A DNA stretch of 64,000 nucleotides from positions 93,549-157,548 of the forward strand of contig JADGBR010000003.1 in assembly GCA_015231405.1 (NCBI GenBank), written 5' to 3'. Each line of letters begins with the position of its first letter. Within the stretch, counting starts at the first letter, position 1. The stretch is from Candidatus Omnitrophota bacterium. GTDB taxonomy: Bacteria > Omnitrophota > Gorgyraeia > Tantalellales > Tantalellaceae. This document shows, piece by piece, positions 3,690 to 53,476 of the stretch. The notes beneath the pieces were generated by a model. It was not told the origin of the DNA, did not search any database, and saw nothing but the letters and a program-made list of their open reading frames with translations. The translations under genes and the position numbers were made by a program.

Positions 3690-3721
3690 ATAGAACTGGA
3701 TATCCGGATATAAAGTGGATA

Positions 3722-4647: not shown

Positions 4648-4656
4648 TGTTATAAT
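4648..4656 (+). promoter_or_regulatory. possible extended -10 element (tgtTATAAT) in the AT-rich divergent intergenic region
   Basis: tggtatgttataatg lies 15 nt upstream of the ATG at 4672. There is no SD, so a leaderless or short-leader transcript is possible. It could also be a chance AT-rich match. Confidence 0.25.
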
Positions 4657-4671
4657 GTTGGCCTTATTATC

Positions 4672-25363: not shown

Positions 25364-25534
25364 CAGATTGTGTCGCAATTCGAATATTAGCTCAATTCGT
25401 CATTGCGGGGAGTGAGCGACGAAGGAGCGAATGACGAAGCAATCCCTGTAAAAATAATTTATAGAGATTGCTTCGGGCACTTCGTGCCCTCGCAAAGACG
25501 GTCATTTTGTTGAAAATTGTTATTGTGACAAAGT
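25364..25534 (+). mobile_element. MITE-like nonautonomous element, copy 1 (3' terminal inverted repeat degenerate)
   Basis: 5' TIR cagattgtgtcgcaat; internal aattcgaatattagc; double-palindromic core (tcgtcattgcgggg..gacgaagcaatcc ... gattgcttcgggcacttcgtgccctcgcaaagacgg); 3' end ttgttattgtgacaaagt. It is alignable end to end with copies at 29590 and 36284. Confidence 0.75.
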
Positions 25535-29589: not shown

Positions 29590-29767
29590 GCAGGCTGTGT
29601 CGCAATTCGAATATTAGCATAATTCGTCATTGCGAGGAGTGAGCGACGAAGGAGCGAACGACGAAGCAATCCCTGTGAAAATAATAAGTTACAGAGATTG
29701 CTTCGGGCACTTCATGCCCTCGCAATGACGGCCAATTTGTTCGAAATTGTTATTACGACACAGTCTG
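29590..29767 (+). mobile_element. MITE-like element, copy 2 (178 bp; TIRs caggctgtgtcgcaat / attacgacacagtctg)
   Basis: A full-length copy with the internal double palindrome. The ORF caller extended dapF into it (MLRALHALAMT...). Confidence 0.8.
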
Positions 29768-31514: not shown

Positions 31515-31607
31515 AATACTTCGTCATTGCGAGGAGCGACCGAAGGGAGAGACGAAGCAATCCAAATAGATTGCTTCGTTGGCCTTTGGCCTCCTCGCAA
31601 TGACGGG
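31515..31607. repeat. core-only variant of the MITE-like element (double palindrome without TIRs)
   Basis: As read: cttcgtcattgcgaggagcgaccgaagggagagacgaagcaatcc..gattgcttcgttggcctttggcctcctcgcaatgacggg. It sits between dapA and dapB. Confidence 0.7.
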
Positions 31608-36283: not shown

Positions 36284-36460
36284 CAGACTGTGTAGCAATT
36301 CGAATATTAGCTTAATTCGTCATTGCGAGGAGTGAACGACGAAGGAGCGAATGACGAAGCAATCCCTGTAAAAACAATAAGTTACAGAGATTGCTTCGGG
36401 CACTTCGTGCCCTCGCAATGACGGCCAATTTGTTCAAAACTGTTATTGCGACACAGTCTG
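36284..36460 (+). mobile_element. MITE-like element, copy 3 (177 bp; TIRs cagactgtgtagcaat / attgcgacacagtctg)
   Basis: The best-preserved copy. Its 16-bp termini are perfect reverse complements apart from one mismatch. It lies between nadA and nadX. Confidence 0.85.
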
Positions 36461-37824: not shown

Positions 37825-40800
37825 ATGAATAACTTTAATAAACAATTAATACTAAGAATTATCTCCTTGTCCACCGCTATCGTATTTCTGTTCCAGAGTA
37901 CGGTATACGGGGAAGCTCCGGCAATTACGGAAAGGTCGATAGAAAAGATAATTATCCCGGGGGAACTGGCTTCTGTGAAAAGCTCGAGCTTCACGGGGGG
38001 CGGGGATATTATCGTCCATATACAGGACGCGCATTGCGATCTTAACGGACAGCTTGCCATATCCAAAATACTTGAATATCTGGAAAAGAGATACGCCCTT
38101 AAGGATATTTATCTTGAAGGAGGGTCCGGAGGGTATGACCTTTCGATATTTAAAAGCATAGCGGATACCGGTGTCAGGCGGCAGGTTTCGGAAAAGTTCC
38201 TTGCTATGGGAGAGATAAGTGCGGCGGAATATTACGCAGTGAACGCGGATATAGCGCCTCTCCTTCAAGGCGTCGAGGACCCTGAACTGTATATCAGGAA
38301 CCTCGACGTATACAGGGGATCAAAGCTATATCGTGATAAAGCCCTGGAAATAGTGAACGCGGCCGGCAAGCGTTTGGACGAGCTCAAAACCCGGATAATG
38401 GGAAAAGAGCTTTTGGAACTGGAAACAAAATACGCCGCTTATTCGAACGATTCTCTTAAGATCAGGGATTACCTGGCATATCTATTCGTCGCAGCCGCTA
38501 AAACCGGATGCGATATCGGCGGTCTTCCGGAAGGGATATCACGATTGAAGAGCGTTCTCGACTCTGAGGAAAAAGTCAATTTCGGCAAGGCCGAAATTGA
38601 CCGGGAAAAGCTTTTGGGCATTCTTTTGGCGAGGTTGCCAGAGACGCGGAAAGAAGATCTTGTAAGGATGGTAGTCGCCTTCAAGCGCGGGGAGATATCG
38701 GGAGCGGAGTTTTACGGGTACCTTACAAAGAGAGCCGAAGAATCCGGCGTGGACGTCTCGTCCCAAATGAAAGATCTCGTGGCCTATGCCGGGTATGTCA
38801 GGGATTACGCCGAAATAGACAGGTCTTCGATCATGGACGGTATCGAGGCTCTTAAGACCGCTATATCCGAAAAATTTATTACCCGGGATGAAGAAAGAAC
38901 GCTTATCCGGCTCGATGAAGGGTTCGGGATGATCAAAAAGATATTCAATTTCAGCGTAACGAGCTCGGAATACAAAAAAGCCCTTAGTATGGATATCGCT
39001 GAGATGTATGGGGAGCTAGAGGCGCTTAACGGGAAGGGAGAGAACTCCGTGGACGCTCCGGAGCTTAAAGACTATTTCGATAGGATCAAGCCTTTTTATG
39101 AACACTCACTTCGAAGGGATGAGGTATTCATTGGCAATATACCCAGTGGGAACAAAGGCTCAGCCCCCCGCGTCATCGCTCTCGTTACCGGAGGGTTCCA
39201 TTCGGAAAACCTGTATGAGTTATTCAAAAAAAGAGGGTTTTCATATATTTCTGTCATACCTGAATTTTCGATATCCGAAGGTGAGAACCGCTATTTTGAT
39301 ATCCTTTCGGGCGAACAGTGCGGGCTTTCAAAAAGGATAAGTGCGGCCGTATCGTCTCTTCAGGTGGCGAGCAAATTGAACTTAGGGCTTGGAACAAAAA
39401 TATGGGGCGAGAGGGGCATCGAGGATTTCGAGGCGGCGCTGTATACGGAAGCGCTGGCCGAAAGCGGGTACAGGGTAGAGATAACGGATGAAAGCACCGG
39501 GGAGGTCGTATTCTCTAACGGGGACGAAAAAAACACCCTAATAAAGATCGGCAAAAACCGATTTTTATCGGACGTCCATCAAGAGTTCATCGATAAGGTC
39601 ATGACGGAAGACGAGAAGAATTACCGTGACCTTAACCCTATGGAAAGAAGCGCGGCCGAAAGGGCAGTTAGAGATATTATCGCGATAATGCCGGATACCA
39701 CGACACAGGATAGATCGGCCCGGTCGTCAGTTGAGGGACTGCTTGGGGTTAAGGCGCTTACCGGAAAAGAAGGCATCCGCGTATCGCTGAAACTTGAAGA
39801 AAGTAGACGCGACGGGCATGCCGGGGGCTGGGGAATAAGGATACGTGAGGAGCTCACCGACGAAGACGCGGTCTATAAAGTGATAAGGCATGAGATCCTT
39901 GCGGGGTTACTCAGGAATCACTCTATGGTCGGGGCGGTCGAAGGGTTTATGGATACGGATGAAACCCAAAGCGCCAGGGCATTCATGGCCGACGCGGAGA
40001 ACCGGCATGAAGGGATGAATGCCCTGTGGGATATCGAAGACAACGCGCGGCATAACATCGAAAGGGATCATTCGACTAAGGGCGGCGAAAAAGAGATAAA
40101 GGACGAGGATGTGCGTGAAATACTCGCCGAAAGGAAGTTCCTTGAACCGTCCGAAAGAGAAGAGCTGGTCAGGTTCATTATGGGATTTCATAAAGATTAT
40201 GACAAATACCTGAGCGTGATGAGGTCGAATAGCCCGGATCCTGCTAGATATAAAATATCTATCAGGGAGATAAAACGGTTCGCCGTGGAGGTCGAGAGGA
40301 TATTTAAAAAAGTGCTGAGCGAGAAAGAGACACGCGTGGAAGCGCTTAGTGTCGCCCGCGGGCAGTCTCTTTTTAATGTATACCTGGATTTTGTGGCCGG
40401 TGACGAAATAGTGGAGGCGAATAGGCGTACAGGGTATAAATTCCCTGATGTGGAATTGGGAGTGTGGAGTCAGAACCTTATCACGAGCTATGGGGCAGCT
40501 GATCGTTATTATGTAGATGGCCTCGCGAGAAAAGGCGAACAATTCGATACTAATATTTTCCAGAACACTGAGAGGAAACTGGGATACGCCCTGGAAAGCG
40601 GCATGCCGTCGCTTTTTATCAAGAACGATAACTCCCTTGGGGCCTTCGAGCAAGCGCTTTCAAAATATGTTTCCGAGAACAACGCCGAACTCCATTCCAT
40701 GCAGTGCACCCCATACAGCGACACGACCCAGCTCCTTGGCGGATATGTCCCCCGGGAAAGGGTGAATAAGGGCGAGGCGTACAAAATAATAGAGGGGATA

Positions 40801-43800
40801 ATAGGGGATGACGCCGAGATACGCGGAATACTCGAAAAACTCCTTTCGAGAGAACCCCTCGATAAGGAAATACGGGATTTTAAGGAACTATACGCTAAAA
40901 AAGAAGCCGACGGGTTAATTATAGCCGCGGCGATGGTCAAAAAGAACCCGGATAACTGGCGGAAGAAGCTGGTTTACGAAAAGGGGCTATTGGCCCGTAT
41001 CATCGAAAAATGCAATAAGGAGGGTGGTAAGACATTTATCCTTAACCTTGAGAACGTCGAGGCCCTGCCCGGGAGGGTGCGAGCCCAGCTTAATACGTTC
41101 CTACTTAACGGCGAAATGAGAGTTCCCGGGGCGGACTCGGAAGAGATGCGAAAACTGGTCATGCCGTCTAACCTCAGGATAATAGCGACGATGGGCGAAG
41201 GGTCGGTCCTCGAGGACGGAGCTTTTTATGACAGGTTCGTGAGGAAAAGCGTCGGCGAATGCGATCCCGGAGATCTCAGGGAAGCTATCGAGCGGGACTA
41301 TCCCGGCTTTCCGGAAAGCGTTGTCAAATTGCTCATAATAACATATCACAAATTCAGGGAAAAAGGGATCGAATGCACTGCCAGGGATTTTTTGAATATC
41401 TCGGGTTATGTGTACGGGAGAGCGAAAAACGGGAGTGTCCAAAAAATGTTCAAAGCAGCGGTGGAGGAGATCATCGGCTATTTTACCGTAAGGGACGAAA
41501 ACAGGTATTCATTCACCGATTACGCCGTGGAAATAGAAGCGGCGGCCGAAAATAGCTTTGACGCAAATTTTCTCAGGAAAGTCGGCCCGTCCATCAGGGA
41601 GATGGACCCGTTTGAGATAAAGATAGAATATTCCAAGGGAAGAAAAGAGCTGGTGGTGAACGGGATAGGCCTCCCGGTCAGAAAGGAGATGGGGTCTGCC
41701 ATGCAAGGGGTCATAGACGCCATGAATAAAGCGTCGGAAGGGTTGCCTGAAGAGTTGGCGATAAAACAGGCCCTTGTTGACGAGCTGGATTTTGTGCTCA
41801 CAAAAGATTCAAAAAAGATGTTATGGGCCGTCGCGCGCGCGTATAAGTACGGCAACGGTTTCGTCTGCCTCGAGGGTGTTACCGGAGCAGGTAAGACTTA
41901 TACCGCCGAGATGCTGAGTAAACTCATAGATTTCAAGCGTCCCCAAGGTGAAAGCCGTTTTTACTCCGAACCCGTCGACGCCCAGACGAAAATATCCAGG
42001 TATGTCGGCATGTTCAGGACGGATGAATACGGCTACTATTCGCTCGATAAGACAACCCCTTTCCTCGATATCATAGAGAACGGCGGCGTCGCGGCCATAT
42101 CCGAGATGAACACGGCCGTCAAGGACGACTACGCCAAGCTCGGCTGGTGGTTCAACCAGTTCGCCCGCGGCGACGAAGTCATTTCATTGACGGAATACCC
42201 GGGTTACGGCCCTCTCGGGGCGATGAGCCGTACGGTGAAGAGAAACCCGAGATGTATAGTGATCGTCGACATCAACCCCGAGGATTATGAGGCGAGGGGA
42301 AAACTTCCGGAGGAATTGAGGTCTTATGCCCAAAGGGTATCGGTATCCAAGACCGAAAATAAAGATGACCTTGAATTCGCCGCGTGGGCCTTTCTTAAAC
42401 AGATAACGGATGATAGGAAACGCTGGGCCATTGCTAAACAATTAGCTCTTTATCATCAGGCGCTGGAGGCTGAAGTGATAGCCGCCAATGGAAGAGGTGA
42501 AAGGCATCCGCCGTTAAGTTTCAGGGAGCTTAAAAGGATTTGTAAGGGCGTGAATAATGACTCTGACGTCTTTGCCGCTATAAAAGATGTAAGGGCCCTG
42601 ATCGGGAAGTACTATATCCCGGCGTTCAGGTCAAAAGAAAAACAAGCTGAACTGAGAGACCAGTTCGGAATAAAGGACTATAGCCCTGAAAAAGTGGTAG
42701 AAGAGCTTATTCTCGCTCCGGCCGGAGAAAGGTCCCCTCCGGCGATGGTATTTACATCCGCCGAAGACGATCCGATGGCGGAGCTTGATACCATTACAAA
42801 AGATAAGGACATGGTCACCGTTGAAAAGACTTTGATCACACTTTTTATCGACGAGTTTAAACTTTTGGGCGGATATGTGCCGGTCTCTAACGACTTAACC
42901 CCTGAAAAAGCGGCTGAGCGCATCGGCGTATACTCGAAAGAAGCTCCGGAAAATATAGGATATCTGGGGGAACTATTTCAGGAAATCGCCCAAAAACCTC
43001 TTCCCGCAGATCTGGAACAACTTACCCATCCTGAAGTGCTGAGTCTCGCCGCTGCCCTGGATTCGCTCCGAAACGGCCGTGACTGGCGCGAAAAACTGCG
43101 TTGGGAAAGAGGGATAATACCTCGTCTGATGAAAGAAGCGAGAGAAAACCCAACCAGGACATACATTCTCGCCCTCGAGAATTTTCACAGGATCCGCCCG
43201 GGCGTGGCCGTAGCCTTGAACAGCATCCTCCAGGAAGGCGAATATTACGACCCGGTCTCGAAAAAGAAAGAGACCGTTCCGCCTAACCTCAGGTTCTACG
43301 CGACCGCGATAGAGGAAGCCGAGCTCCCCATATCCATGGCGGAGGAATCGAGGTGGGTGAGGATACATAAGGGGATGAAAACTCAGGGTGAAAAGAAAAG
43401 TGAATTGATCGAATATGCCCGGAAACTCGTTTTGGAAAAGATCAACGCCGGGGAACTACAGTTTGTCGGTAATTATTCCCCCATTGGGTTTACTCGTAGT
43501 GAACAGGCTTTAACCGTGTCTGAAACGATCGTCAGTTCCATCGGAGATGAATTCTTGGAGCTATTCAATGTACCGCAACATAAGGAATACATAGATTCCG
43601 TTATAAACCAGGCTTTTTCTGAAGGGCCGGTAACTACCTCTGAGAGGTGGATTTATGCCCAAAGAATGAGCAAGTATTTGGTATATGGGGCTGCGATGAA
43701 AGCATCTGATAAAGCGGAACATTTTGAAAAAGGTAAACCTTCGCTATGTCCGAGATTATCCGAAAAGGATCAAGACATAAATCTATACGCCATTAAAATG

Positions 43801-46800
43801 TCCAAGAGAAGGATGGAGTGGCGTATTTATGCCGAATTCATCGAATTGTTCGATAGGAACTTTTTCGATTACATAAGCGAAATAAAAGATATGATGTCCA
43901 TGCCTGATATTCTTGCTTGCGTAGACGGGATAATTGAAGAATACGCTGAATATCATGAAAGTCTGAAACCCGGTATGGTCATTGGTAACTATGATTTATT
44001 GCAGAAAATATCGTTAAGGCAGATCAATAAATACATAAGCCGCAACTGTTTTGATAATAATCTTGCTGATAAAACCCCTATGGCAGGCTCGACAGCTAAT
44101 CTCCTCGAAGAAGTCGACGAACTCGTCGAGATCGAAGCCGCTACCTTCCAGGCTTTCAAGAACGGCAAAGTCGTCATTTACGAAGGCGCTCCCGGCGGCG
44201 GCAAGACCGACATGGGTATAGACGTAGCGAACCGCATGGGCCTTAAGAACTTCGTCTATTCCTGCCATGGGAGAGTTCACTCATCTGACCTTCTCGGCGG
44301 GTTCAGACAGGACAAAAGGGGCAATTTCATTTTTACCGGCGAGCCGGACGACGCCGGCAATTTTAAATATAACCCGTTCCTCCAAATGCTCACCCACGGA
44401 GGCGTATTCATATTCGACGAAGGGGCCATAGGCAAAAGGTCACAGGAACTTCTCAGTCTCCTCTCTGGCATCGCGAGGGGCGATAAAGACTTCTTCGTTA
44501 ACGAGCTCCCCGGAAAACCGGCGAGAAAACTTGAGGTCCATAAAGATTTTCACATAATAATTACGATGAACCCCGCCGAAGATACTCCCGGCCGCGAGCC
44601 ACTGCCGCTCGAACTCTATAACCACGCGAGAAGGATCTGGGTGCCGGGGAAAATGTCGGAAGAGTCTTACCGGAAGATAATCACGCGCTTCTTCAAAGAC
44701 GCTTGCGCCAGAAATAAAGTAAACCCTGAGGATATCTTCGCCTCCAACGAAAAAAGCCGCAAAATGTTCTCGGACCTCATAACCGAGATCCATTTCATCA
44801 TCAACGAAATGGTAGGCGAAAGCGTGAGCCTTGAAGAGAGCACAAACCTTCATCTTCTTACACTCAGAGATATGAAGAAACTGGTTAAAGACTTCGTGAA
44901 ACTCTACGCCGCCGGGGTGGATAAAACGGAAGCGCTGAGGCTAGCCATAAGAACAGAATACTTAAGTCAGTTCGACGCGAGATCCGACCGCAACCTCATC
45001 AAGCTCCGTCTCGACGGTACTTTCCTCGGCGCCGGCAAAAAGGAGATGGCCGACCAATTCCAAACCGAAAAAATATACCTGGGGACGGTGATATCGACCA
45101 TGGGGAAACCAGTCGACCCGGAGACGCTTAAGCTGATAGACAGGAAACGGCAAAAACAAGGTGAGCTGCAAACTCCCGGAATGAGGACGGAAAAACCATT
45201 ATCTCCATTTGAGCCCGGTAATGTTGCCCGCCTCCCCGGCGACGTTTTAAAGAAGCCCGCCAGATTCGCGAAAGACTGGCGGGAGATAAATGGGGATCCG
45301 GGTATCGATCAGGGACGGGAACGGGGGACGGTCGAGGTGGCCGAAGAGAAGTCTTTGGCGCTTTTTGACAGGTTCAGCCCTACCGACGGTGAAGCGGTCT
45401 ATTGGAAGGAAACAGCGAAGGATCGTATAGCCACACCCCAGACCGTTGTTCCGCTAGAAGGCCCGGGTGAACTACCAGCCGATCTGGATACCCGAATGGC
45501 ATTCGAGCAAAAAGCCTTTACCTATAGTGAGACTGTTCCCGAGATCATCGCGGGAAAGTTGGGCGAGGGTAAGGGCGTTATGAACGCTTTATACTCCGAA
45601 TGGTCAATTACGGAACTTTACAAGACATTGAAGATTGGAGATAAGCGTGTTACGGGTATAGAGGTAATAGAGATCGGAGGCGAAGAATGCCTGGTCACAT
45701 CGGCCGGTAAGGCTGTTCAGGTGTGGCGGAAGACGCCCTCGGGATGGGATGTAACGACGCTTCTCGGGAGTACCCGGGGTATCAACGTTTTAAGAACGAT
45801 AAAGCGCGGCGGTAAAACATGCATAGTGACAGGTTCTGTCTCTGGTCTAGTGATGATGTGGGAACCGGACGGAGGCGGGTGGAAAGCTACTCGGTTATAC
45901 GGCTATGCCGGCAATGACGTAACAGCTTTAGCCGTTATGAGGAGAGTTGTCGACGGAGAGGAAAAAGAATGCCTGGTTACCGGCGGAAGTGACGGGAAGA
46001 TCTATCTATACGAGGAAGGTAAAGACGGGTGGGGATACACTTGTTTTAAAGTGGGATCGGAGCCTATACTCAGTCTGGAAGTCATGAAATTTAAAGACAA
46101 GGGTAACAGTATTGTAGCGGCCGGCGGATACGGTACCGTAAAGGCTCTATATTCTCCTGGCGGGAATGACTGGGCCGGGGAGTATGTTTTCAGCGAGAGG
46201 TGGTCTACGGGATCTTTTATCTGCCCCGATAAAACTGAGAACGGAACGTTTTTTACGAGCGGGTACGTCGATAATGTGACGGATATGTCGGGTGTCTGGC
46301 GCTTCGAGCCGGGCGCGACGGACAATGCGGGTGTTATTTACGACGCACATGCTAAAGGAGCCGTCCGGGACATGAAAGGATTCGGGCTTAACGGTGAAAA
46401 TATGTACGTTTCGGCGGGTCTTGACGGTAGGATCATATTATGGAAAGAGGCAAAAGAGAAACCCGCTTCCGGTGAACAGCCGTCGCTTATGCCGATAAAC
46501 GTCCTCTTTGAAAAAGAAGACGTAAAGTTCAATAAACTCCTGGTCACCGACATCGAGATAGGAGGTAAATCACGGAAATGCGTCCTCGCCGGGACCACGA
46601 CCGGCGAGGTCATGATCTTCAACCTCGAGCAGGAGAAGTATATCGAGGAGAACAAGCGGCGCCTCGCTCCGGAGGATCCGGAAGCCGCTCTGCCCGTGCC
46701 GGAAAAGCCCGAACTCCCGTACGGTTTGGGCGAAGAAGCTATTTTCAGGCCTACTGAATTCGCGGATGCGGGGCGGATATTCGATAGGGAGATAACGGGG

Positions 46801-49800
46801 GATGAGATAGACGCGATGAGTGCCGGACTGGTCGCGAAGGCCGGGCGAATGGTGTCGAAAGAGGTCCCTTCAAGAAGCGTAACGGGCGGAGCGGATATGC
46901 CCCGTCAAAAAGACATTGCATGCTATAAAACTGACGAATTCGAGGATGCTTTAGGTGCTCCTGTGGAAGAGAAAGCGTCCTTTTCTGATATGCCGGATGA
47001 CATGGAAGGGTTAATGGATGGAGAGAAATACTTCATGTATATTGAGCGGAATAAATACGCGGACGTCTTGAAAAATACGACTTTTAGACAAAAAGATAAA
47101 AGATTAAGCGAGCTGATCAATAAAATAGACCTGAAATGCAAAGTTAGCGGCATCAAGGTGTTTAAGGTCGGGAGCAAAGAGTGTATCGCTTATAGCGATT
47201 ATAACGGATGGTTAAGGATAATCGATTTCTCTACAGGGACGGTGCTGAACATAAAAGCCAATTCATCGATCATTTGCGGTATTTACAGCATGGAAATATT
47301 ACAACACGGAGATGAGACCGTCATAGTTACCTCCGGCGAGAAGAATAAACTTCGCAGATGGTCGATGACTGAAAAAGGGCTTACCGAAGGGAAAGTCACC
47401 GTCAGGAGTATGGATATATATACAGGGGAAATACCGATACGCAAAATGCGAAAGGGCGGGAAAGAATGTATCGTTGTCTGCGGAAGGGACAATACGATAA
47501 TGATCATTGAAGAGTTCGTTCAAGAAGATAATGCCGGGCGTGTAGTGGATAAGATAAAACGAACGATACTCGCGTCCAGGAATTGGCAGCTTAATCGTTT
47601 TTCTGTTTTGGAAGAGCTTGACGGTAACGACAGTATTGTCGCTTCTCATTCGACTCACACCGGGCAGCCTGACGGGGCTGACGCGTTGTGTCTGTGGAGT
47701 AATACCGGGGACGGATGGGATATGAAAATGATCGAGCCGGTGGATGGTTCGGGGAATGAAGTTAAAAGGCAAAATGATGTCCCGTTCATCGAGGGTGAAG
47801 AATGCCAGCTCCTGGACACGATATCGCTTTCCGGGGGTGGCAATAACTTGATAGTTACGGCTCCCAAGGATCCGGGCAATGAGATACTCGCTAAACATCT
47901 CAGGATATACAAAATGGACGGGAAAAGCGGTTGGGAAGTAATGAATTTATACGGTGTATTTGAAGGATACACAGCTCCCTCGGGACGTGATCTGATCGGA
48001 AAGGTTCAAAATGTGAAAACAGTCAAAGCCGGCGGGAGATCGTACGTTTTGATCAACGATATTCTTCAAAATCTGAGAGTTTGTGATTTTGCCTCGAATA
48101 CGGTCAGAATTTTGGAAATAGTCGATGAAGATCAGCTACATTGGAATTCAATAGTAGGAGCCGAGGGAATGGAGACGGGGGGATTATTAGTGACTTGTTC
48201 GAATGGAGGCGAACTGAAATTCTGGGACTTAAACCTTCAAGATAAAATAAAATACGAGAAAGTTGCCGTCGCGGCTGCGAAGTCGGGGTCGGGTGAGGGT
48301 GATGCCTTTCCTTCTCCTTCCGATGAAGCGTATCCCGAGATCGAGCTTCCGGAAGAGCCGGCTATTAACGAGACGCGTCTTGCGCTGAAACTTTCCGGGC
48401 GGGTGCTGCTTATCGCGCAGCCGGGGGCTAGGGAGAAGGTTATCGTTGATGAATCGGCGAAGCGCGAAGGGATAAAGGACGTGTATTCCATTGAAGGCAG
48501 TCCGTCGCTCACCGTTTTCGATATGTTCGGCGGGCTTTTTCCTCTGCTTGAGGGTGAGGAAAGGCCGTCCGGGGAGGATCTGGTCTTTAAAAAAGGATTT
48601 TTCACAAGGCACATGATCACCGAGGAGGAATATCTTAGGGATTACGGCGAGGATGACGAGCCCCGGCTTCTTGTCATACACAATATTGACGCCGTGCCCG
48701 AGAAAGTCAGGGCGGCGGTCAATAATCTTCTCCTTAACGGCTTCATAGAGATACCCGGCGAGGGTGAGAACGGCCGGCTTTATCTTCCGGAGAACATAAA
48801 GATCATAGCCACGATAAACGCTAACAGCCAGCGGGATTTCTCGAGCGCTTTCCCAAACAGGTTTACCCGGGTCAACGCATCGGAAATGGAAACGTCGCCT
48901 TACTGGCTTAGCCAGTTCGTTCAATATGTGATGAGGGTTTACGGGTTCGATAATGAGCTGGCCGGAAGCATCGAGATGGTGCATTGCATGATAAAAAGGC
49001 TGGAGGACGGAGGCAGTTTCTGGCCTTCGGGTTACGTGTACGGGTTCACGGTCAAAGACGCTTTGACGGCGGCGAAATTCATTTCGCTCGGGCTAAAAGA
49101 AAGGGCAATGTTAGGGCAGGCTGTTACTAAGAAGGATGAGACGGAAATAGCCGTAAGGGAGATCATCAGGGCTTACGGTTTACGTCTTAAACAGAGCGAT
49201 AAAGATTATGACAATTTTGTGGACCTGATCCTGAAGAGGATATTCGACCACGATAAAGATATGGTCGACGCCGTTTCGGGCGAGATAAGGATATCCGGCG
49301 GGAAATTGTCATCCATATCGGATATCCCGGTGAACCCGACCCAGAAAGGTAAACACCCGTACGCGATAGACAAGAATTACAGGCTGACCATGGTGAAAAG
49401 CATCGTCCGTACCATATCCGGCGTTCTACGCGGATTCCAGGCCGGGAAGATCGTCTCCCTGACCGGCGAAACCGGCGTCGCCAAGACCACGATAGGAGTC
49501 GCGCTCGCTGAAAGCCTGGGGATGGATAGCTATGTCTTCAGCATGCATAAAGATGTTAAGTCTTACGATTTTACGGCAGGTATCAGGGCGACAGATGCCG
49601 GTCAGTACCGGCTTGACTTGTCGGATTTCGCCGAAAAATTAAAGTCCGGGAACACCGTCCTTGTTGTCGACGAAGCTAACATTAAACCCGAGATATTATG
49701 GATACTCTCAGGGATCGCCCGCGGCGAGAGGAAATTCTCCATCGAAGTGCCCGGAGAAAAGCCTATAGAATTCCGGCTCGGAGATAACATATATATCCTC

Positions 49801-52800
49801 TTTACGATGAATCCCGAGGATTACGAAGGCGGAAGGGATATCATCCCACAGCCTGTCAAGGAGGATATATTCAATATATGGGCCCCGTCGGAGTATCCGG
49901 ACCCGGAGCTTACGGCGATCGTCAACGAGTTCTTCGACGGGTATAGCGTTCTTGATAATATTAAGGAGGAAAAAAAGAAGGAAGAGATAGAAGGCATGGA
50001 TCTGGACGAGAGGATGCTCCGGCTTTTCAAATACTTGCGCCATGGCTACGCTCTTACGACCATAGAGGATATCGTCGCCTCTATAGAAGAGAAAGGTTTT
50101 AAGGCCGCGCTTATGGAATATCTCGCTGTAAAGCCGGCGGACGATACTAGAGAGGCTAAAAAAGCGGCAAGGAAAGAGGCCAAGGCGCGAAGAATAGAGC
50201 TCAAATCTATCGAGAAAGAAATGCTGGAACGCGGCGAGGTCAAAACGAAGATGGACAAAATAAGGTTCCTCGTCAAATCCTCATGGGATATTCAGAAAGA
50301 CTTGAACGACGAGGACGAGGTCGAGATAAAATTCAGTCTATTCACGTGGTGGAGCACGACGGTCGTGGAAAGGACGCGCGCCGGAGGGAGGGTTAAGGTC
50401 CGGGTAATTTATGTGCCTTTATATGAGCTTGTGAAGAGGAAGGGCGAGCCGGGAGCCGCACCAAAAGAGAAAAGCGAGGGGGTCATTGCCGCGGTTATTC
50501 TTCACGAGTTCAGGCACAAACTGTACTCACCCAGGTCCGAAGAATATCGGGATGAGATCAAACCGTTGTTGGAGGGGTCTCTTACCCCCGAAGAAATGGA
50601 GTTTTTCGCAAATCTTACCCGAGAGAAACAGAAGATCGACGGCGAGTTCATGGGGTTTGATAACCTGATCGAGGATATAAGGATAAATAACATAGAGAAC
50701 CCGAGACTGAAAGGGGAAAAAAGGCTTTTTAACGCGCTCTTGGAACATCAGTACGGGAATATCCTTGTTCCGGAGCCGGATATGCTCCCGAATATATTTG
50801 AGCGGGCGCAAATGGCGCCGCATACATTACTGCACGATGATCTTCTCGCCTATGGCGCTTTCGGACGGCACAGCTGGTATTTTGATTCGCTTCCGGACGA
50901 GCTAAGGGAGGATATAAGGAGCTTGACCGACGGCCCGGATTCTCCGGTTTACAGGGCTACACTCCATAGATCGGTAAAACCGGATCTCACAGGCGTCAAA
51001 AGTCACTTCGATATGAAAAAAGAAAAACTGAGAGCCGAGGCTGAACGGATCAAAGTTTTTCTTAAGGAGATAAACCCGGTTTTCCAGAAATGGCTTAAAA
51101 GAGCCGCGGAGGCCCCCAAAGATGGAGAAGCCGGCAAGGGAGGCGCGGGCGGAGCCCAGGGAGTGCCTTCGTTCATAGACCTCCCTCCGGAGTTCGCGGA
51201 TATGTTCGATAAGCCTGAAGGCGGCGAGGGAGAGGAAGGGTCAGAAGGCGGATCCAGCGTGAATATCGTGGGTGAGGATGGATCCCGGGAGGAATTAGGT
51301 GAGGGTGATGGGGAGGGGGCCGAAGAAGGCGAAGCGGATGGAACGGAAACCCCCGGAGGAATAGAAGAAGCTACTCCTTCCGCCGGTAACCCTGACCATA
51401 CTGAAGAAGGTGAAAAAGCCTCGGGCTCCGCAAAGCCGCCGCTACCCGGTGAAGGCGGCGAGGAGCCTTCGAGAGGCGACAAGTTCGACAAGAGCGTTAA
51501 GGATATCGAGAAGAAAAGGAAGGAAGAGCTTAAACAGGAGCCTTTCAACGAGCGTTTGACGGAAGTGAGTGAGGTGGCGAAAAGGCTGGCCAAAGGGTTT
51601 ATAAATATTTTCCGCGTGCCGGGCGAGCCGGATGTTGAGGAGACCCCCTTCGGCCGCATTATAAACGCCGTGCGTTATATCATCGGCAGCAATGTTCCGT
51701 TCGACGAAGACGCCGATACTTTGGGCGCGCCCGACCTCGCGTTCGGCATGACTATCGACGCGAGCGGAAGCATGGTAGACGCTTACCCGGCGCTTAAACG
51801 CCTGAGCGCTATACTCTTATCCGCTTTTCAGCAGATAGGTAATAAGGCGGAACTGTCCATCACGATGGATAATAAGGAAGTATCGACCATAAAAAGTTTC
51901 AGCCAGAAATTCAAGCAGGAACACCTTAACGCCATGCAGACAAAAATAGAGGATAAAATAGGGGAGGGCGGTAACGGCATACATCTCTACGACACGATGA
52001 TGGAGATAATCAATAAGTATAAAGGGTGCAGGAAGAATAATAAGCTGGAGGTGATATTTACCGACGCGGGCGATACGGGTAAGGATCTGTACCTGGATCG
52101 TGGCGGGAAATTGTGCTGCACCGAAAGGCTGGACGAAGCTTTCAAAAAAGCGAAAAGCATGGGGATAACTATTATCGGCGTAGGTTTTGGCGACAGTTAT
52201 GTCGAGGTTTTTGATAGTTACCTTAACCTCAATAAGGACAATGTCGACGCCATAGTCGGCGCGATGCTATCCATAGGGAGCGTCAAAGCCAAAACCGGTA
52301 AAGTCCCGTCGGGTGACCTTTCGGAAGTACTTGACCTCGGGAAAAGCGGGACTTTGAAAAGCGGGGCATCCGGGAGATCAAGGCTTTCGGGGGAAAGGAA
52401 ATATACGGTCGTAAAGATGAGCGAAGCGCCGAAAGCGAATAATTTATCCGAAACTCGTAACTTATCGACGACTGTCTCCCCGCGGACAAAGGCTATGTCC
52501 GAACTATGGAAGAACATGACAAGGGATATAGTCATCCTTCCCGAGACCGAACTTTACACTTCCGACGAAATGGGCGCGAGGAAAAACGCTAGAGTACTCG
52601 ATAAAAAATACGCTCAGACCACCGTTACGTTCGGGTACGCCTATAACGGTGATTGGAAAAATAACCTGAAGGGCGTAATGGAGAAAGCAAAAGAACAGCT
52701 ATCCGGAGACCTCGCGAAGGGTGATTCCAAGACCAGGGCGATAGTGTATGTGCCGGAAGAGGCTGACGGTGATCTCATGGAAGCCATGTTCGGCGAGCTG

Positions 52801-53139
52801 GAGATCGGAGAAACGCTTAAGGAAAGAATTACCGTCGTCAGGGAAAGAAACCTTGAGAATGATATCCCCATCGAGGTCGCGCGGCATATAACCCTCGGCA
52901 AGGTCCTCCTTAACTATGAAAGGTTCAGAAAAAAAGATTTCGATATAGAGATGAACGCCGGAGAAATATCCGCCCTTATAGGCATGGTGAGAGACGCTGT
53001 AAAAGGTCACGGGAATATAACTCTCGCCTTCGTAGAGGAACTAGTTAAAGGCCTCGCCGTATTTGAGGCTGAAAAGTTCGCCTTCACGACAATAACCGAC
53101 TGGAAAGCGCGCGAAGAGAAGTTCATTAAGTCGGTGTAA
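37825..53139 (+). CDS. giant midasin/MoxR-like protein: signal/anchor + about 1000-aa N-terminal region + six AAA_5-type ATPase modules (three active, three degenerate) + WD40-like beta-propellers + D/E-rich tract + C-terminal VWA (MIDAS) domain
   Basis: The ORF is uninterrupted for 15.3 kb. The N-terminus is MNNFNKQLILRIISLSTAIVFLFQSTVYG. The Walker A motifs are GVTGAGKT (nt 41875), GAPGGGKT (nt 44185) and GETGVAKT (nt 49465), with Walker B IFDEG and VVDEAN. Dynein/midasin-type sensor segments are ...LNGEMRVPG...NLRIIATM, FHIIITMNPAED and IYILFTMNPEDY. The acidic tract is nt 51190-51480. The MIDAS motif is DASGSM...TDAGDTG (nt 51757). Confidence 0.85.
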   Translation: MNNFNKQLILRIISLSTAIVFLFQSTVYGEAPAITERSIEKIIIPGELASVKSSSFTGGGDIIVHIQDAHCDLNGQLAISKILEYLEKRYALKDIYLEGGSGGYDLSIFKSIADTGVRRQVSEKFLAMGEISAAEYYAVNADIAPLLQGVEDPELYIRNLDVYRGSKLYRDKALEIVNAAGKRLDELKTRIMGKELLELETKYAAYSNDSLKIRDYLAYLFVAAAKTGCDIGGLPEGISRLKSVLDSEEKVNFGKAEIDREKLLGILLARLPETRKEDLVRMVVAFKRGEISGAEFYGYLTKRAEESGVDVSSQMKDLVAYAGYVRDYAEIDRSSIMDGIEALKTAISEKFITRDEERTLIRLDEGFGMIKKIFNFSVTSSEYKKALSMDIAEMYGELEALNGKGENSVDAPELKDYFDRIKPFYEHSLRRDEVFIGNIPSGNKGSAPRVIALVTGGFHSENLYELFKKRGFSYISVIPEFSISEGENRYFDILSGEQCGLSKRISAAVSSLQVASKLNLGLGTKIWGERGIEDFEAALYTEALAESGYRVEITDESTGEVVFSNGDEKNTLIKIGKNRFLSDVHQEFIDKVMTEDEKNYRDLNPMERSAAERAVRDIIAIMPDTTTQDRSARSSVEGLLGVKALTGKEGIRVSLKLEESRRDGHAGGWGIRIREELTDEDAVYKVIRHEILAGLLRNHSMVGAVEGFMDTDETQSARAFMADAENRHEGMNALWDIEDNARHNIERDHSTKGGEKEIKDEDVREILAERKFLEPSEREELVRFIMGFHKDYDKYLSVMRSNSPDPARYKISIREIKRFAVEVERIFKKVLSEKETRVEALSVARGQSLFNVYLDFVAGDEIVEANRRTGYKFPDVELGVWSQNLITSYGAADRYYVDGLARKGEQFDTNIFQNTERKLGYALESGMPSLFIKNDNSLGAFEQALSKYVSENNAELHSMQCTPYSDTTQLLGGYVPRERVNKGEAYKIIEGIIGDDAEIRGILEKLLSREPLDKEIRDFKELYAKKEADGLIIAAAMVKKNPDNWRKKLVYEKGLLARIIEKCNKEGGKTFILNLENVEALPGRVRAQLNTFLLNGEMRVPGADSEEMRKLVMPSNLRIIATMGEGSVLEDGAFYDRFVRKSVGECDPGDLREAIERDYPGFPESVVKLLIITYHKFREKGIECTARDFLNISGYVYGRAKNGSVQKMFKAAVEEIIGYFTVRDENRYSFTDYAVEIEAAAENSFDANFLRKVGPSIREMDPFEIKIEYSKGRKELVVNGIGLPVRKEMGSAMQGVIDAMNKASEGLPEELAIKQALVDELDFVLTKDSKKMLWAVARAYKYGNGFVCLEGVTGAGKTYTAEMLSKLIDFKRPQGESRFYSEPVDAQTKISRYVGMFRTDEYGYYSLDKTTPFLDIIENGGVAAISEMNTAVKDDYAKLGWWFNQFARGDEVISLTEYPGYGPLGAMSRTVKRNPRCIVIVDINPEDYEARGKLPEELRSYAQRVSVSKTENKDDLEFAAWAFLKQITDDRKRWAIAKQLALYHQALEAEVIAANGRGERHPPLSFRELKRICKGVNNDSDVFAAIKDVRALIGKYYIPAFRSKEKQAELRDQFGIKDYSPEKVVEELILAPAGERSPPAMVFTSAEDDPMAELDTITKDKDMVTVEKTLITLFIDEFKLLGGYVPVSNDLTPEKAAERIGVYSKEAPENIGYLGELFQEIAQKPLPADLEQLTHPEVLSLAAALDSLRNGRDWREKLRWERGIIPRLMKEARENPTRTYILALENFHRIRPGVAVALNSILQEGEYYDPVSKKKETVPPNLRFYATAIEEAELPISMAEESRWVRIHKGMKTQGEKKSELIEYARKLVLEKINAGELQFVGNYSPIGFTRSEQALTVSETIVSSIGDEFLELFNVPQHKEYIDSVINQAFSEGPVTTSERWIYAQRMSKYLVYGAAMKASDKAEHFEKGKPSLCPRLSEKDQDINLYAIKMSKRRMEWRIYAEFIELFDRNFFDYISEIKDMMSMPDILACVDGIIEEYAEYHESLKPGMVIGNYDLLQKISLRQINKYISRNCFDNNLADKTPMAGSTANLLEEVDELVEIEAATFQAFKNGKVVIYEGAPGGGKTDMGIDVANRMGLKNFVYSCHGRVHSSDLLGGFRQDKRGNFIFTGEPDDAGNFKYNPFLQMLTHGGVFIFDEGAIGKRSQELLSLLSGIARGDKDFFVNELPGKPARKLEVHKDFHIIITMNPAEDTPGREPLPLELYNHARRIWVPGKMSEESYRKIITRFFKDACARNKVNPEDIFASNEKSRKMFSDLITEIHFIINEMVGESVSLEESTNLHLLTLRDMKKLVKDFVKLYAAGVDKTEALRLAIRTEYLSQFDARSDRNLIKLRLDGTFLGAGKKEMADQFQTEKIYLGTVISTMGKPVDPETLKLIDRKRQKQGELQTPGMRTEKPLSPFEPGNVARLPGDVLKKPARFAKDWREINGDPGIDQGRERGTVEVAEEKSLALFDRFSPTDGEAVYWKETAKDRIATPQTVVPLEGPGELPADLDTRMAFEQKAFTYSETVPEIIAGKLGEGKGVMNALYSEWSITELYKTLKIGDKRVTGIEVIEIGGEECLVTSAGKAVQVWRKTPSGWDVTTLLGSTRGINVLRTIKRGGKTCIVTGSVSGLVMMWEPDGGGWKATRLYGYAGNDVTALAVMRRVVDGEEKECLVTGGSDGKIYLYEEGKDGWGYTCFKVGSEPILSLEVMKFKDKGNSIVAAGGYGTVKALYSPGGNDWAGEYVFSERWSTGSFICPDKTENGTFFTSGYVDNVTDMSGVWRFEPGATDNAGVIYDAHAKGAVRDMKGFGLNGENMYVSAGLDGRIILWKEAKEKPASGEQPSLMPINVLFEKEDVKFNKLLVTDIEIGGKSRKCVLAGTTTGEVMIFNLEQEKYIEENKRRLAPEDPEAALPVPEKPELPYGLGEEAIFRPTEFADAGRIFDREITGDEIDAMSAGLVAKAGRMVSKEVPSRSVTGGADMPRQKDIACYKTDEFEDALGAPVEEKASFSDMPDDMEGLMDGEKYFMYIERNKYADVLKNTTFRQKDKRLSELINKIDLKCKVSGIKVFKVGSKECIAYSDYNGWLRIIDFSTGTVLNIKANSSIICGIYSMEILQHGDETVIVTSGEKNKLRRWSMTEKGLTEGKVTVRSMDIYTGEIPIRKMRKGGKECIVVCGRDNTIMIIEEFVQEDNAGRVVDKIKRTILASRNWQLNRFSVLEELDGNDSIVASHSTHTGQPDGADALCLWSNTGDGWDMKMIEPVDGSGNEVKRQNDVPFIEGEECQLLDTISLSGGGNNLIVTAPKDPGNEILAKHLRIYKMDGKSGWEVMNLYGVFEGYTAPSGRDLIGKVQNVKTVKAGGRSYVLINDILQNLRVCDFASNTVRILEIVDEDQLHWNSIVGAEGMETGGLLVTCSNGGELKFWDLNLQDKIKYEKVAVAAAKSGSGEGDAFPSPSDEAYPEIELPEEPAINETRLALKLSGRVLLIAQPGAREKVIVDESAKREGIKDVYSIEGSPSLTVFDMFGGLFPLLEGEERPSGEDLVFKKGFFTRHMITEEEYLRDYGEDDEPRLLVIHNIDAVPEKVRAAVNNLLLNGFIEIPGEGENGRLYLPENIKIIATINANSQRDFSSAFPNRFTRVNASEMETSPYWLSQFVQYVMRVYGFDNELAGSIEMVHCMIKRLEDGGSFWPSGYVYGFTVKDALTAAKFISLGLKERAMLGQAVTKKDETEIAVREIIRAYGLRLKQSDKDYDNFVDLILKRIFDHDKDMVDAVSGEIRISGGKLSSISDIPVNPTQKGKHPYAIDKNYRLTMVKSIVRTISGVLRGFQAGKIVSLTGETGVAKTTIGVALAESLGMDSYVFSMHKDVKSYDFTAGIRATDAGQYRLDLSDFAEKLKSGNTVLVVDEANIKPEILWILSGIARGERKFSIEVPGEKPIEFRLGDNIYILFTMNPEDYEGGRDIIPQPVKEDIFNIWAPSEYPDPELTAIVNEFFDGYSVLDNIKEEKKKEEIEGMDLDERMLRLFKYLRHGYALTTIEDIVASIEEKGFKAALMEYLAVKPADDTREAKKAARKEAKARRIELKSIEKEMLERGEVKTKMDKIRFLVKSSWDIQKDLNDEDEVEIKFSLFTWWSTTVVERTRAGGRVKVRVIYVPLYELVKRKGEPGAAPKEKSEGVIAAVILHEFRHKLYSPRSEEYRDEIKPLLEGSLTPEEMEFFANLTREKQKIDGEFMGFDNLIEDIRINNIENPRLKGEKRLFNALLEHQYGNILVPEPDMLPNIFERAQMAPHTLLHDDLLAYGAFGRHSWYFDSLPDELREDIRSLTDGPDSPVYRATLHRSVKPDLTGVKSHFDMKKEKLRAEAERIKVFLKEINPVFQKWLKRAAEAPKDGEAGKGGAGGAQGVPSFIDLPPEFADMFDKPEGGEGEEGSEGGSSVNIVGEDGSREELGEGDGEGAEEGEADGTETPGGIEEATPSAGNPDHTEEGEKASGSAKPPLPGEGGEEPSRGDKFDKSVKDIEKKRKEELKQEPFNERLTEVSEVAKRLAKGFINIFRVPGEPDVEETPFGRIINAVRYIIGSNVPFDEDADTLGAPDLAFGMTIDASGSMVDAYPALKRLSAILLSAFQQIGNKAELSITMDNKEVSTIKSFSQKFKQEHLNAMQTKIEDKIGEGGNGIHLYDTMMEIINKYKGCRKNNKLEVIFTDAGDTGKDLYLDRGGKLCCTERLDEAFKKAKSMGITIIGVGFGDSYVEVFDSYLNLNKDNVDAIVGAMLSIGSVKAKTGKVPSGDLSEVLDLGKSGTLKSGASGRSRLSGERKYTVVKMSEAPKANNLSETRNLSTTVSPRTKAMSELWKNMTRDIVILPETELYTSDEMGARKNARVLDKKYAQTTVTFGYAYNGDWKNNLKGVMEKAKEQLSGDLAKGDSKTRAIVYVPEEADGDLMEAMFGELEIGETLKERITVVRERNLENDIPIEVARHITLGKVLLNYERFRKKDFDIEMNAGEISALIGMVRDAVKGHGNITLAFVEELVKGLAVFEAEKFAFTTITDWKAREEKFIKSV

Positions 53140-53143
53140 CGAC

Positions 53144-53205
53144 GGGACTGTGGACCCTAGACTATGGACCATGGACAATAGTCCGGCGTCCGGGTCAGCC
53201 GACCC
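53144..53205. repeat. ggaccatgg-type palindrome (gggactgtggaccctagactatggaccatggacaatagtcc) plus a small GC hairpin
   Basis: Read directly after the giant gene's stop. Confidence 0.75.
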
Positions 53206-53216
53206 GATCGCGGCAA

Positions 53217-53476
53217 GACTTACAATAACGGTTTTGGACAAACTGGCCGTAGAAACGAAGGCACGAAGTGCCCGTGGACAAAGGCCCGTCAAAGCGAAGG
53301 TACGAATTGCCTGTGAACAAATTGGACGTCATTGCGAGGGCACGCCTGCCTGCCGGCAGGCAGGAAGTGCCCGAAGCAATCTCTGTAAAAATAGCAATTC
53401 ACAGGGATTGCTTCGTCGTTCACTCCTTCGTCGCTCACTCCTCGCAATGACGGATCAAGCTAATATTTGAATTATG
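53217..53476 (-). mobile_element. MITE-like element, copy 4, inverted and rearranged (internal partial duplications and a cctgcctgccggcaggcagg insertion)
   Basis: It ends attatgacacagtctg, the reverse complement of the 5' TIR. Its core is the reverse complement of the other copies. A spurious 106-aa ORF lies inside it. Confidence 0.75.

Follow-up and report, generated by a model that had tools for sequence, protein, structure and literature searches.

A 5,104-residue Omnitrophota protein with six AAA modules, P-loops in every second module and a VWA domain: a candidate single-chain MoxR/midasin-class machine

The stretch of DNA analysed here (the window) comprises 64,000 nucleotides of contig JADGBR010000003.1 (positions 93,549 to 157,548, forward strand) from the Candidatus Omnitrophota bacterium assembly GCA_015231405.1, and our main subject is a single gene within it that encodes a giant protein, hereafter the giant. 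The gene is one unbroken open reading frame (ORF) on the + strand, with a first in-frame start (GTG) at 37801, an ATG at 37825 and a stop codon that ends at 53139. Counted from the ATG, the protein is 5,104 amino acids (aa) long, which bears out the uninterrupted 15.3-kb ORF described in an initial annotation made from the letters of the window. The translation is identical to NCBI MBF0215968.1 (database protein P0004), deposited from a 178-kb contig under the title "MAG: AAA family ATPase [Candidatus Omnitrophica bacterium]". From one end to the other, the giant consists of an N-terminal segment, a domain that we call Nterm1, four AAA modules (M1-M4), two WD40 propellers, two further AAA modules (M5-M6), an HExxH domain, an acidic linker, a VWA domain and a C-terminal domain. 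These features are as follows (AF2, AlphaFold2; pLDDT, predicted local distance difference test; D+E, aspartate plus glutamate).

37825..53139, + strand: giant gene, 5,104 codons plus stop (NCBI MBF0215968.1)
37825..37911, + strand: N-terminal signal-peptide-like or membrane-anchor segment (aa 1-29), hydrophobic core aa 9-27, ending ...VYG/EAP
37906..39384, + strand: Nterm1 domain (aa 28-520), with invariant IxDxH, EG and GGFH
39382..40614, + strand: region aa 520-930, partly acidic, conserved in the closest paralogues only
40612..41544, + strand: AAA module M1 (degenerate), no P-loop Lys, Walker B E-N, invariant Arg of DRF
41752..42744, + strand: AAA module M2, P-loop GVTGAGKT, Walker B S-E family-wide
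42742..43704, + strand: AAA module M3 (degenerate), Walker B E-N, conserved Arg of SRW
44062..45084, + strand: AAA module M4 (fully canonical), GAPGGGKT, IFDEG, TMNP and GR
45742..48324, + strand: two WD40-type beta-propeller regions (aa about 2640-3020 and 3110-3500), between M4 and M5
48322..49254, + strand: AAA module M5 (degenerate), P-loop remnant PGARE, Walker B H-N, invariant FSSAF.NRF
49342..50334, + strand: AAA module M6, GETGVAKT, VVDEAN, TMNP and GGR
50332..51120, + strand: HExxH domain, HEFRH at aa 4227 and downstream EDxR, mostly helical
51121..51486, + strand: disordered acidic/Gly-rich linker (aa 4433-4554), 27% D+E and 25% G
51502..52434, + strand: VWA domain with MIDAS motif, DASGSM at aa 4645 and TDAGDT at about aa 4745, preceded by a helical N-terminal extension
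52432..53136, + strand: C-terminal alpha/beta domain (aa 4870-5104), in the closest relatives only, AF2 pLDDT about 80-90

Six AAA modules had been proposed, and six were found (at about aa 930-1240, 1310-1640, 1640-1960, 2080-2420, 3500-3810 and 3840-4170), arranged as three repeats of a two-module unit. When the modules were compared with one another by local alignment with shuffling controls, the odd modules were mutually similar (z-scores of 23 for M1-M3, 15 for M1-M5 and 6 for M3-M5), as were the even modules M2, M4 and M6 (z 17, 9 and 31), while odd-versus-even pairs stayed at background with the exception of M2-M3 (z 4.3). Thus, the giant carries three copies of one di-module. An hhalign comparison of the odd and even profiles gave a probability of 2%, yet the alignment was collinear. 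Pfam AAA_5 (PF07728) had been expected to match six times; in a scan of overlapping pieces of the protein it exceeded the gathering score of 22 twice, with 38.1 bits at aa 1757-1824 (M3) and 35.3 bits at aa 3878-4001 (M6; E 1.4e-8). When five odd-module sequences (M1, M3 and M5 of the giant and M5 of the homologues P0001 and P0002) were scanned singly, two of the five matched AAA_5, at E 0.0055 or weaker, and M5 of the giant was without an AAA_5 match. Profiles gave clear significance, with E 1.4e-67 to midasin for the even modules and E 7.5e-13 for the VWA region.

A motif scan of the giant placed P-loops at residues 1351 (GVTGAGKT), 2121 (GAPGGGKT) and 3881 (GETGVAKT), and found D-E Walker B motifs only at 2194 (IFDEG) and 3945 (VVDEA). 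The three P-loops agree with the claim of three modules with intact Walker A and B motifs. However, only M4 is fully canonical in both motifs; M2 has S-E at Walker B, and in M6 Ala replaces the second P-loop Gly. In M1, M3 and M5 the P-loop is degenerate and the Walker B positions read EN, EN and HN, contrary to the D-E sensor segment at first ascribed to every module. The same pattern runs through the family of relatives described below. In M2 the P-loop G, K and T are invariant (30/30), with S in 28 of 30 and E in all 30 sequences at Walker B; M4 has a canonical P-loop with Walker B D in 53 and E in 52 of 54; and M6 keeps the Lys of GETGxAKT in 52 of 53 and Walker B D-E in 53/53. The Arg of the motif (D/N/S)R(F/W) is not conserved in any of these three. 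The odd modules lack the P-loop Lys and have a Walker B that is mostly D/E-N in M1, mostly E-N in M3 and R/H-N in M5, and it is here that the motif Arg is found (23/23, 10/11 and 41/41, respectively). The AAA_5/MoxR motif set (Walker A, Walker B, sensor 1 Asn and arginine finger) is present, then, in split form, with the P-loop, Walker B and the N of TMNP in M2, M4 and M6 and the (D/N/S)R(F/W) Arg in M1, M3 and M5.

In an AAA+ ring, each ATP site is completed by the arginine finger of the subunit that follows. Applied to this split, the rule predicts from conservation that the giant has three composite sites and three dead interfaces. The odd-module Arg presumably stands at the same motif position as the R of ALYDR in RavA, which is probably R170. 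The arginine finger of RavA is R170 (PMC6987120). M1 and M3, but not M5, also contain a helical insert of about 80 aa directly after the LLGGYVP strand. Comparable H2-alpha inserts in Rea1, namely AAA2L and AAA4L, regulate that ring (PMC6286127).

We were also able to model one pair of modules. An AF2 model of M5-M6 (14-sequence alignment; pLDDT 78.5, predicted template modelling score 0.74) has two alpha/beta-plus-lid modules, and in Foldseek about 570-620 columns could be aligned to a pair of adjacent dynein motor-ring modules (E 1e-17, TM 0.53). The pair is therefore predicted to pack like ring neighbours.

The modules had been described as a series followed by a long spacer, but they are split 4 + 2, and the approximately 1,080 aa that separate M4 from M5 are WD40-type propellers, a folded insert within the module array. 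Pfam WD40 (PF00400) reached 32.1 bits against a cut-off of 27; WD40 and beta-propeller families matched aa about 2670-3480, several propeller families doing so below threshold, and the close homologue P0001 has many propeller annotations. The insert is also present in P0005, and is absent from P0002 (a partial sequence), P0012 and P0013. Nor is the stretch between M6 and the acidic tract a mere spacer, for it holds the conserved HExxH domain, in which the H, E and H of the motif and the downstream E and R are invariant in nine family members. The domain is helical in the AF2 model (pLDDT 75-94), and its sequence suggests a putative zincin-like metallopeptidase.

The acidic tract itself was confirmed (aa 4451-4530; 34% D+E, 22% G). 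It lies in a 122-aa linker (aa 4433-4554) with pLDDT below 35 that is predicted to be disordered, and whose sequence is not conserved although its acidic/Gly-rich character is kept across the family. In an AF2 model of aa 4170-5104, built from eight sequences, three confident domains (HExxH, VWA and C-terminal alpha/beta) surround this linker. The VWA domain scored below the Pfam threshold when the giant was searched as a single sequence (18.1 against 23.8 bits, aa 4644-4792), and it took a profile of the family together with a structure model to establish the domain. A ten-sequence profile of the region matched VWA and integrin I domains at E 7.5e-13, and the closest structures to the model were the human MDN1 MIDAS domain (8ql1; 19.2), the Rea1 MIDAS domain (6qta; 18.0) and the VWA domain of NorQ-bound NorD (9qh8; 17.1), followed by generic VWF-A domains (17.1 or less) and BchD (13.4). 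The margin over other structures is modest, and the top three in this model comparison are all VWA domains that serve midasin or MoxR rings. A VWA domain was said to close the protein with an intact MIDAS motif; DASGSM and TDAGDT are indeed conserved, DxSGS and the Asp of TD..D being invariant in the homologues, but a further C-terminal domain follows and one MIDAS residue is replaced (see below).

The N-terminal hydrophobic segment of the initial annotation is present at aa 9-27, and a motif scan found it to be the only one in the giant; many family members have similar hydrophobic or signal-like segments at the N-terminus. Pfam had no match in the first 1,000 residues. Nterm1 is common to 11 family members, with invariant I-x-D-x-H, E-G and G-G-F-H motifs. 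It had no match in Pfam, and the PDB gave only a marginal calmodulin-like match to its helical middle part, which we regard as noise from helical composition. The pattern of its motifs may resemble that of the ChaN/TraB/erythromycin-esterase superfamily.

To define the family, a three-sequence M5-M6 profile was compared exhaustively (HMMER) with 1.84 billion representatives, and 503 proteins matched at E<=1e-3, of which 171 reached E<=1e-10 and 65 reached E<=1e-30. About 80 of the best 150 representatives were large prokaryotic proteins (as long as 7,600 aa) or pieces of them, and those with names were almost all from Candidatus Omnitrophota and labelled "AAA family ATPase" or "MoxR-like ATPase". 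A word-indexed protein search was nearly blind to the family (it did not return the giant itself), so that its negative results are uninformative. A profile search of genome contigs with a narrow alignment found three loci and added an Auribacterota metagenome-assembled genome (MAG). The giant is thus not unique, but one of roughly 80 clusters that are public under generic annotation. The initial annotation called it uncharacterised, and in the literature we found no description of a prokaryotic midasin-like or hexa-AAA_5/VWA protein; "uncharacterised" holds to that extent, for a protein that is one of many already deposited. Domain databases list bacterial proteins with several AAA_5 domains, recording their existence without analysis.

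The conserved plan of the family is a signal-like N-terminus, a variable N-region, M1-M4, an optional insert, M5-M6, the HExxH domain (in closer relatives), an acidic/Gly-rich linker and the VWA domain. Of 43 members that reach 2,500 aa or more, 24 read exactly odd-even-odd-even-odd-even, each position best matching the module at the same position in the giant. Close relatives of the giant have the large insert between M4 and M5, a second group has it between M3 and M4, and others lack it. The closest homologue, locus L001, is 58% identical in M5-M6 and 28-50% identical in the C-terminal domains; despite frameshifts (a low-coverage assembly) it is collinear with the giant to the last residues, and it keeps HExxH, EDIRI, TIDASGSM and FTD..DT. 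That the M1-M6 order, HExxH and VWA recur in this way shows purifying selection on the whole architecture. At least two paralogues, MBF0215721.1 (P0006; 6,162 aa) and MBF0215528.1 (P0012; 4,144 aa), have accession numbers neighbouring that of the giant, lie on two contigs of equal length and are probably from the same MAG, which suggests that the family has expanded within one genome. The M4-M5 insert is 2,175 aa long in one of this pair and absent from MBF0215528.1.

After the giant's own family, the next best matches of the exhaustive search were about 60 eukaryotic midasins, a rank that is inflated because scores are summed over six modules. Against all PDB sequences, a six-sequence even-module profile matched midasin/Rea1/Mdn1 at the E-value given above, and all six midasin AAA modules were hit; the three best single midasin modules scored 44-49 bits, compared with 22-30 bits for Lon, dynein, McrB, NorQ and MoxR 2r44. 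Larger family hidden Markov models (HMMs) gave 45-77 bits per midasin module. A small odd-module profile had no match in the PDB, and larger family HMMs were needed here also: the M5 HMM matched midasins with full-sequence E-values of 1e-19 to 1e-26 and the M1 HMM at about 1e-12, reversed and shuffled midasin controls gave no match to odd-module HMMs, and an 11-sequence M3 HMM was not significant against midasin. Single-sequence searches of the PDB found only marginal NorQ and Lon matches (NorQ was best for M4), and NCBIfam had only sub-threshold GvpN, TsaE and dTMP-kinase P-loop matches on the giant. Among proteins of solved structure, none comes closer than midasin, whether in the AAA modules or in the VWA domain.

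The likeness extends to the overall plan. Midasin, too, carries six AAA_5 modules in tandem on one polypeptide of about 5,000 aa, which also has a flexible acidic region and, at its C-terminus, a VWA domain of the MIDAS type; alternate modules bear helical H2-region inserts, and the modules show a period-2 similarity. However, every second module of the giant appears to be catalytically dead, whereas midasin has nucleotide-binding motifs in AAA2-AAA5. The linker of about 1,700 aa and the N-terminal helical domain of midasin are absent from the giant, in which M6 and the acidic tract are separated by only about 260 aa, taken up by the HExxH domain, and the acidic region is 122 aa long compared with several hundred in midasin. 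Outside the AAA modules, profile, BLAST and Pfam searches gave no midasin match. The giant has in addition the WD40 propellers inside the array, the HExxH domain, the extra C-terminal domain and the signal-like N-terminus, and its bacterial host has no nucleolar ribosome assembly pathway and no evident UBL (ubiquitin-like) ligands of the Rsa4/Ytm1 type. Positional orthology to midasin AAA1-6 is not demonstrable, as M2, M4 and M6 all match AAA3-5 about equally and give no register. Thus, the statement that the giant works like midasin and the MoxR-VWA pairs stands, but the statement that it is a midasin fails on the register, the P-loops and the linker and N-domain.

Domain content and conservation suggest that the giant is probably a self-contained mechanical remodelling machine of the MoxR/midasin class in one polypeptide. 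With the corrections given above, this supports the original proposal of a single-chain MoxR-type hexamer fused to its VWA partner in the order of midasin, and the proposal is reinforced by the proximity of the VWA model to the MDN1/Rea1 MIDAS and NorD structures, by the disordered linker and by the dynein-like packing predicted for M5-M6. None of the three outcomes named beforehand as refuting it (AAA_5 and VWA matches without significance, a split ORF, MIDAS residues that vary among homologues) was observed. In the proposed mechanism, the six modules would together form a closed pseudo-hexameric ring that has composite ATP sites at only three interfaces (M2|M3, M4|M5 and M6|M1), each even module supplying the P-loop and Walker B and the following odd module the invariant arginine finger. 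M4|M5 would be the main hydrolytic site, M6|M1 is probably active, and M2|M3 would probably bind ATP with slow hydrolysis. On its tether, the VWA domain would capture a protein ligand through the MIDAS metal site and dock on the ring in the manner of the midasin MIDAS and NorD VWA domains, and ATP-driven movement of the ring would then pull the tether so that the bound target is extracted, unfolded or repositioned. Conjecturally, the propellers and the N-terminal domain may be recruitment or positioning platforms at the membrane, and the HExxH domain may cut the engaged substrate. In the two precedents, the Rea1 MIDAS domain docks on the ring and a flexible D/E region is thought to transmit force (PMC6286127), and the VWA finger of NorD enters the NorQ pore while the ATPase stretches the NorD linker (PMC13036017).

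Several observations weigh against this proposal, and the main problem is one of topology. The N-terminal segment suggests a Sec signal peptide, judged by the positive-inside rule and the VYG/E site, and a Sec signal with no second hydrophobic segment would leave the ATPase in an ATP-free place beyond the cytoplasm, although an ATP-dependent machine should be cytoplasmic. The model covers one module pair, so that closure of the ring across the 1,080-aa propeller insert is an assumption. The identity of M3 as an AAA module depends on its similarity to M1 and on one Pfam stretch (aa 1757-1824). The MIDAS Thr of the second (middle) loop is not conserved, this loop being GGNGI in the giant and variable in the family. 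The HExxH domain has no significant match to a known peptidase family, WLM/Wss1 reaching only E 0.1-0.2. Finally, a conserved neighbouring gene that might hint at the substrate was looked for at the loci of the giant and of the homologue P0013, and there was none.

Comparison with other systems places the giant more precisely. Bacterial MoxR-VWA pairs (NorQ-NorD, RavA-ViaA, CbbQ-CbbO and CoxD-CoxE) likewise join a ring of the AAA_5/MoxR class to a VWA/MIDAS adaptor and likely act as the giant would, with the VWA domain engaging the ring and the ATPase pulling on a linker (PMC13036017). They are, however, homohexamers of a protein of about 270-500 aa with a separate VWA protein, usually in the operon of the client enzyme, whereas the giant has six modules and the VWA domain in one chain, half of the modules degenerate, and no client gene nearby. 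Among MoxR/midasin-class rings with a VWA adaptor, what appears to be distinctive of the giant is the alternation of dead and live modules together with the extra domains. The Mg-chelatase subunits BchI/BchD (ChlI/ChlD) belong to another AAA+ subfamily (the chelatase clade), have one module per chain and form separate rings, not an alternating single chain, and their structural similarity to the giant is far below that of midasin or NorD. The dynein heavy chain shares six different AAA modules per chain, some of them degenerate, and gives the best Foldseek matches for the M5-M6 model; its stalk emerges between AAA4 and AAA5, which is topologically where the propeller insert of the giant is placed. 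However, dynein has no VWA domain, its sequence similarity (28 bits) is far weaker than that of midasin, its degenerate modules are AAA5 and AAA6 and do not alternate, and in part of the giant's family the insert lies between M3 and M4 or is absent. Giant proteins of the archaeovorin and dockerin types come from the same phylum, which has many very long ORFs, and AAA_5 is among the frequent domains of Omnitrophota giant proteins (bioRxiv 10.1101/2023.11.21.568195). Those giants exceed 20,000-30,000 aa and have many transmembrane helices with SecA-like, carbohydrate-active and adhesion domains, and a hexa-AAA_5/HExxH/VWA architecture is not described in the literature that we found on Omnitrophota giant proteins.

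A question raised by these comparisons is that of origin, and here a second protein is informative. P0065 (NCBI MFC1753351.1, 4,005 aa; locus L007 212-12229 on contig JBHPEX010000050.1) is labelled Thermoproteota, but its contig is compact and its neighbours (ClpB-like, RadA-like and UvrD/AddB-like) look bacterial. It has six intact modules that alternate between GET..GKT and GPTASGKT, with about 650 aa inserted between the fourth and the fifth, as well as a C-terminal DxSxS and a Pfam VWA domain on record. It matches a fungal-type midasin at E 9e-67 (BLASTP) and scores best with all of the module HMMs of the giant except the non-significant M3, with single-domain scores of up to 105 bits; by its sequence P0065 is far more midasin-like than the giant. 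In the module z-score matrix, the giant and P0065 (odd 79-146, even 93-105, mixed 28-59) show period-2 similarity, as does midasin more weakly (AAA1/3/5 39-69, AAA2/4/6 27-45, mixed 14-35), the even modules of the giant pair with those of P0065, and the M5 and M1 HMMs score highest on P0065 odd modules. A separate Omnitrophota protein annotated as 'HEAT repeat' (P0117; 3,145 aa) also has a midasin match, at E 4e-76.

It is possible, though we consider it doubtful, that the six-module chain with its MIDAS domain arose once and that the giant's family, P0065-like proteins and eukaryotic midasin share descent, either because midasin is of prokaryotic origin or through an ancient transfer from eukaryotes; both are compatible with the proposed mechanism. 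The place of midasin as closest solved relative and as best match after the family itself, the bridge that P0065 forms from a prokaryotic gene context with its intact alternating modules, insert and DxSxS, the period-2 similarity in all three proteins and the H2-region inserts on alternate modules of the giant (M1 and M3) and of Rea1 (AAA2L and AAA4L; PMC6286127) argue for such descent. The period-2 data are compatible with one ancestral chain of a triplicated di-module, and to that extent common ancestry has gained plausibility. However, the even modules of the giant give no register against midasin, the giant lacks a counterpart to the linker and to the N-terminal domain of midasin, and the HExxH domain, propellers, signal-like N-terminus and dead odd modules have no midasin equivalent. 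Furthermore, the exhaustive-search rank of midasin is inflated as described, few bacterial MoxR families have solved structures for comparison, and a two-module unit could have been triplicated independently.

It has been proposed that six tandem MoxR-type AAA domains arose early in eukaryotes, before dynein and midasin split (PMC3495828). A bacterial family with six AAA_5 modules and a MIDAS domain implies either that the six-module chain originated in prokaryotes or that it was, strikingly, invented a second time in parallel. More specifically, we would suggest, speculatively and with low confidence, that the hexameric single-chain AAA_5 ring with a tethered MIDAS domain was a prokaryotic and not a eukaryotic invention, made by triplication of two modules, from which midasin and, via midasin, the dynein ring descend. 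Omnitrophota and related bacteria would in that case carry a range of machines, from the strongly midasin-like P0065 and P0117, all of whose modules would be active, to the giant with its alternating dead and live modules.

A different reading is that the giant is a fused version of the MoxR-vWA-beta-propeller conflict systems, acting in defence or regulated cell death, in which the ATPase and VWA domain gate an HExxH effector when an invader is sensed. These systems are built from the same kinds of domain (MoxR-class AAA, vWA, beta-propeller and peptidase; PMC7159879), a single genome holds several paralogues (MBF0215968, MBF0215721 and MBF0215528), and the inserts and N-terminal regions are highly variable among members. 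This nevertheless seems unlikely. The ternary systems of Kaur et al. (2020) have separate MoxR and vWA-propeller genes, single-module MoxR proteins, variable effectors and a mobile neighbourhood, whereas the giant is a single fused gene. It stands among what appears, from the encoded proteins, to be an ordinary housekeeping set, with dapB-like, LL-DAP aminotransferase-like, folK, panC, nadA and aspartate dehydrogenase genes upstream and genes for a 1,781-aa FecR/DUF11/porin-like protein, an IMPDH-family protein and dnaE downstream. P0013 is likewise found among housekeeping genes, without a conserved partner gene. PADLOC gave only a weak mad8 match on the giant, which is not meaningful, and there is no recognised effector and no VMAP/iSTAND component.

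The topology problem suggests yet another reading, in which the giant is an exported surface or adhesion protein with adhesive VWA and WD40 domains, and its AAA modules are relics or become active only after delivery into a host or prey. The Sec-like N-terminus without another hydrophobic segment, and the frequency of signal-like N-termini in the family, would fit, and Omnitrophota are rich in giant and partly extracellular proteins thought to serve attachment or predation (PMC10066038; bioRxiv 10.1101/2023.11.21.568195). However, about 30-50 divergent members keep the P-loop, Walker B and arginine-finger residues with little or no variation at the positions of the three sites, and since this is hard to explain without ATP use we judge an exported adhesin to be improbable. 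That the ORF is an assembly chimera, a multi-gene read-through or a pseudogene can be practically dismissed, because although it derives from a MAG, the frame is open over 15.3 kb, a 178-kb contig is the source of the identical deposited protein, dozens of independent assemblies of different sources repeat this domain order, and the homologous locus L001 is collinear to its last residues.

If the giant is a MoxR/midasin-class machine, as we favour, its alternating design offers a natural, covalently fixed model for the use of a subset of ATP sites in MoxR and midasin rings, and could aid structural and single-molecule work. The built-in HExxH domain and propellers suggest a remodeller that is coupled to a protease and has its own substrate platform. 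Large Omnitrophota proteins so far labelled only 'AAA family ATPase' can now also be given a concrete architecture.

The surroundings of the gene yielded some further observations. Promoter and terminator scans around it were uninformative. A 106-aa ORF after the stop codon of the giant (53150-53470) was rejected as a gene, being a translated palindromic repeat element. This intergenic element, to which no strand is assigned, lies at 53328..53451, just 3' of the giant stop codon and outside the protein, and may be a terminator or a REP-like (repetitive extragenic palindromic) element. The repeat, GTCATTGCGAGG...CCTCGCAATGAC, occurs in the window as five inverted pairs (25399-25499, 29626-29729, 31523-31604, 36319-36422 and 53328-53451; outer ends 80-125 nt apart), mostly at gene ends or between genes, and as one lone copy (22242), with 11 matches observed against 0.2 expected.

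The 1,781-aa protein encoded directly downstream of the giant gene (53594-58939, + strand) has FecR, lactonase-type propeller, DUF11, SdrD-B-like and OmpL-like beta-barrel porin (BBP2) domains, from which it is probably a surface or outer-membrane protein, and it is not kept beside homologues of the giant at the loci compared. Elsewhere in the window (4642-9012, + strand), a MutS domain V ATPase (E 6.5e-43) occurs in a protein of 1,456 aa that also has, near aa 1053-1138, a weak second P-loop region of AAA-like type; the protein is unusually long for the MutS2 type.

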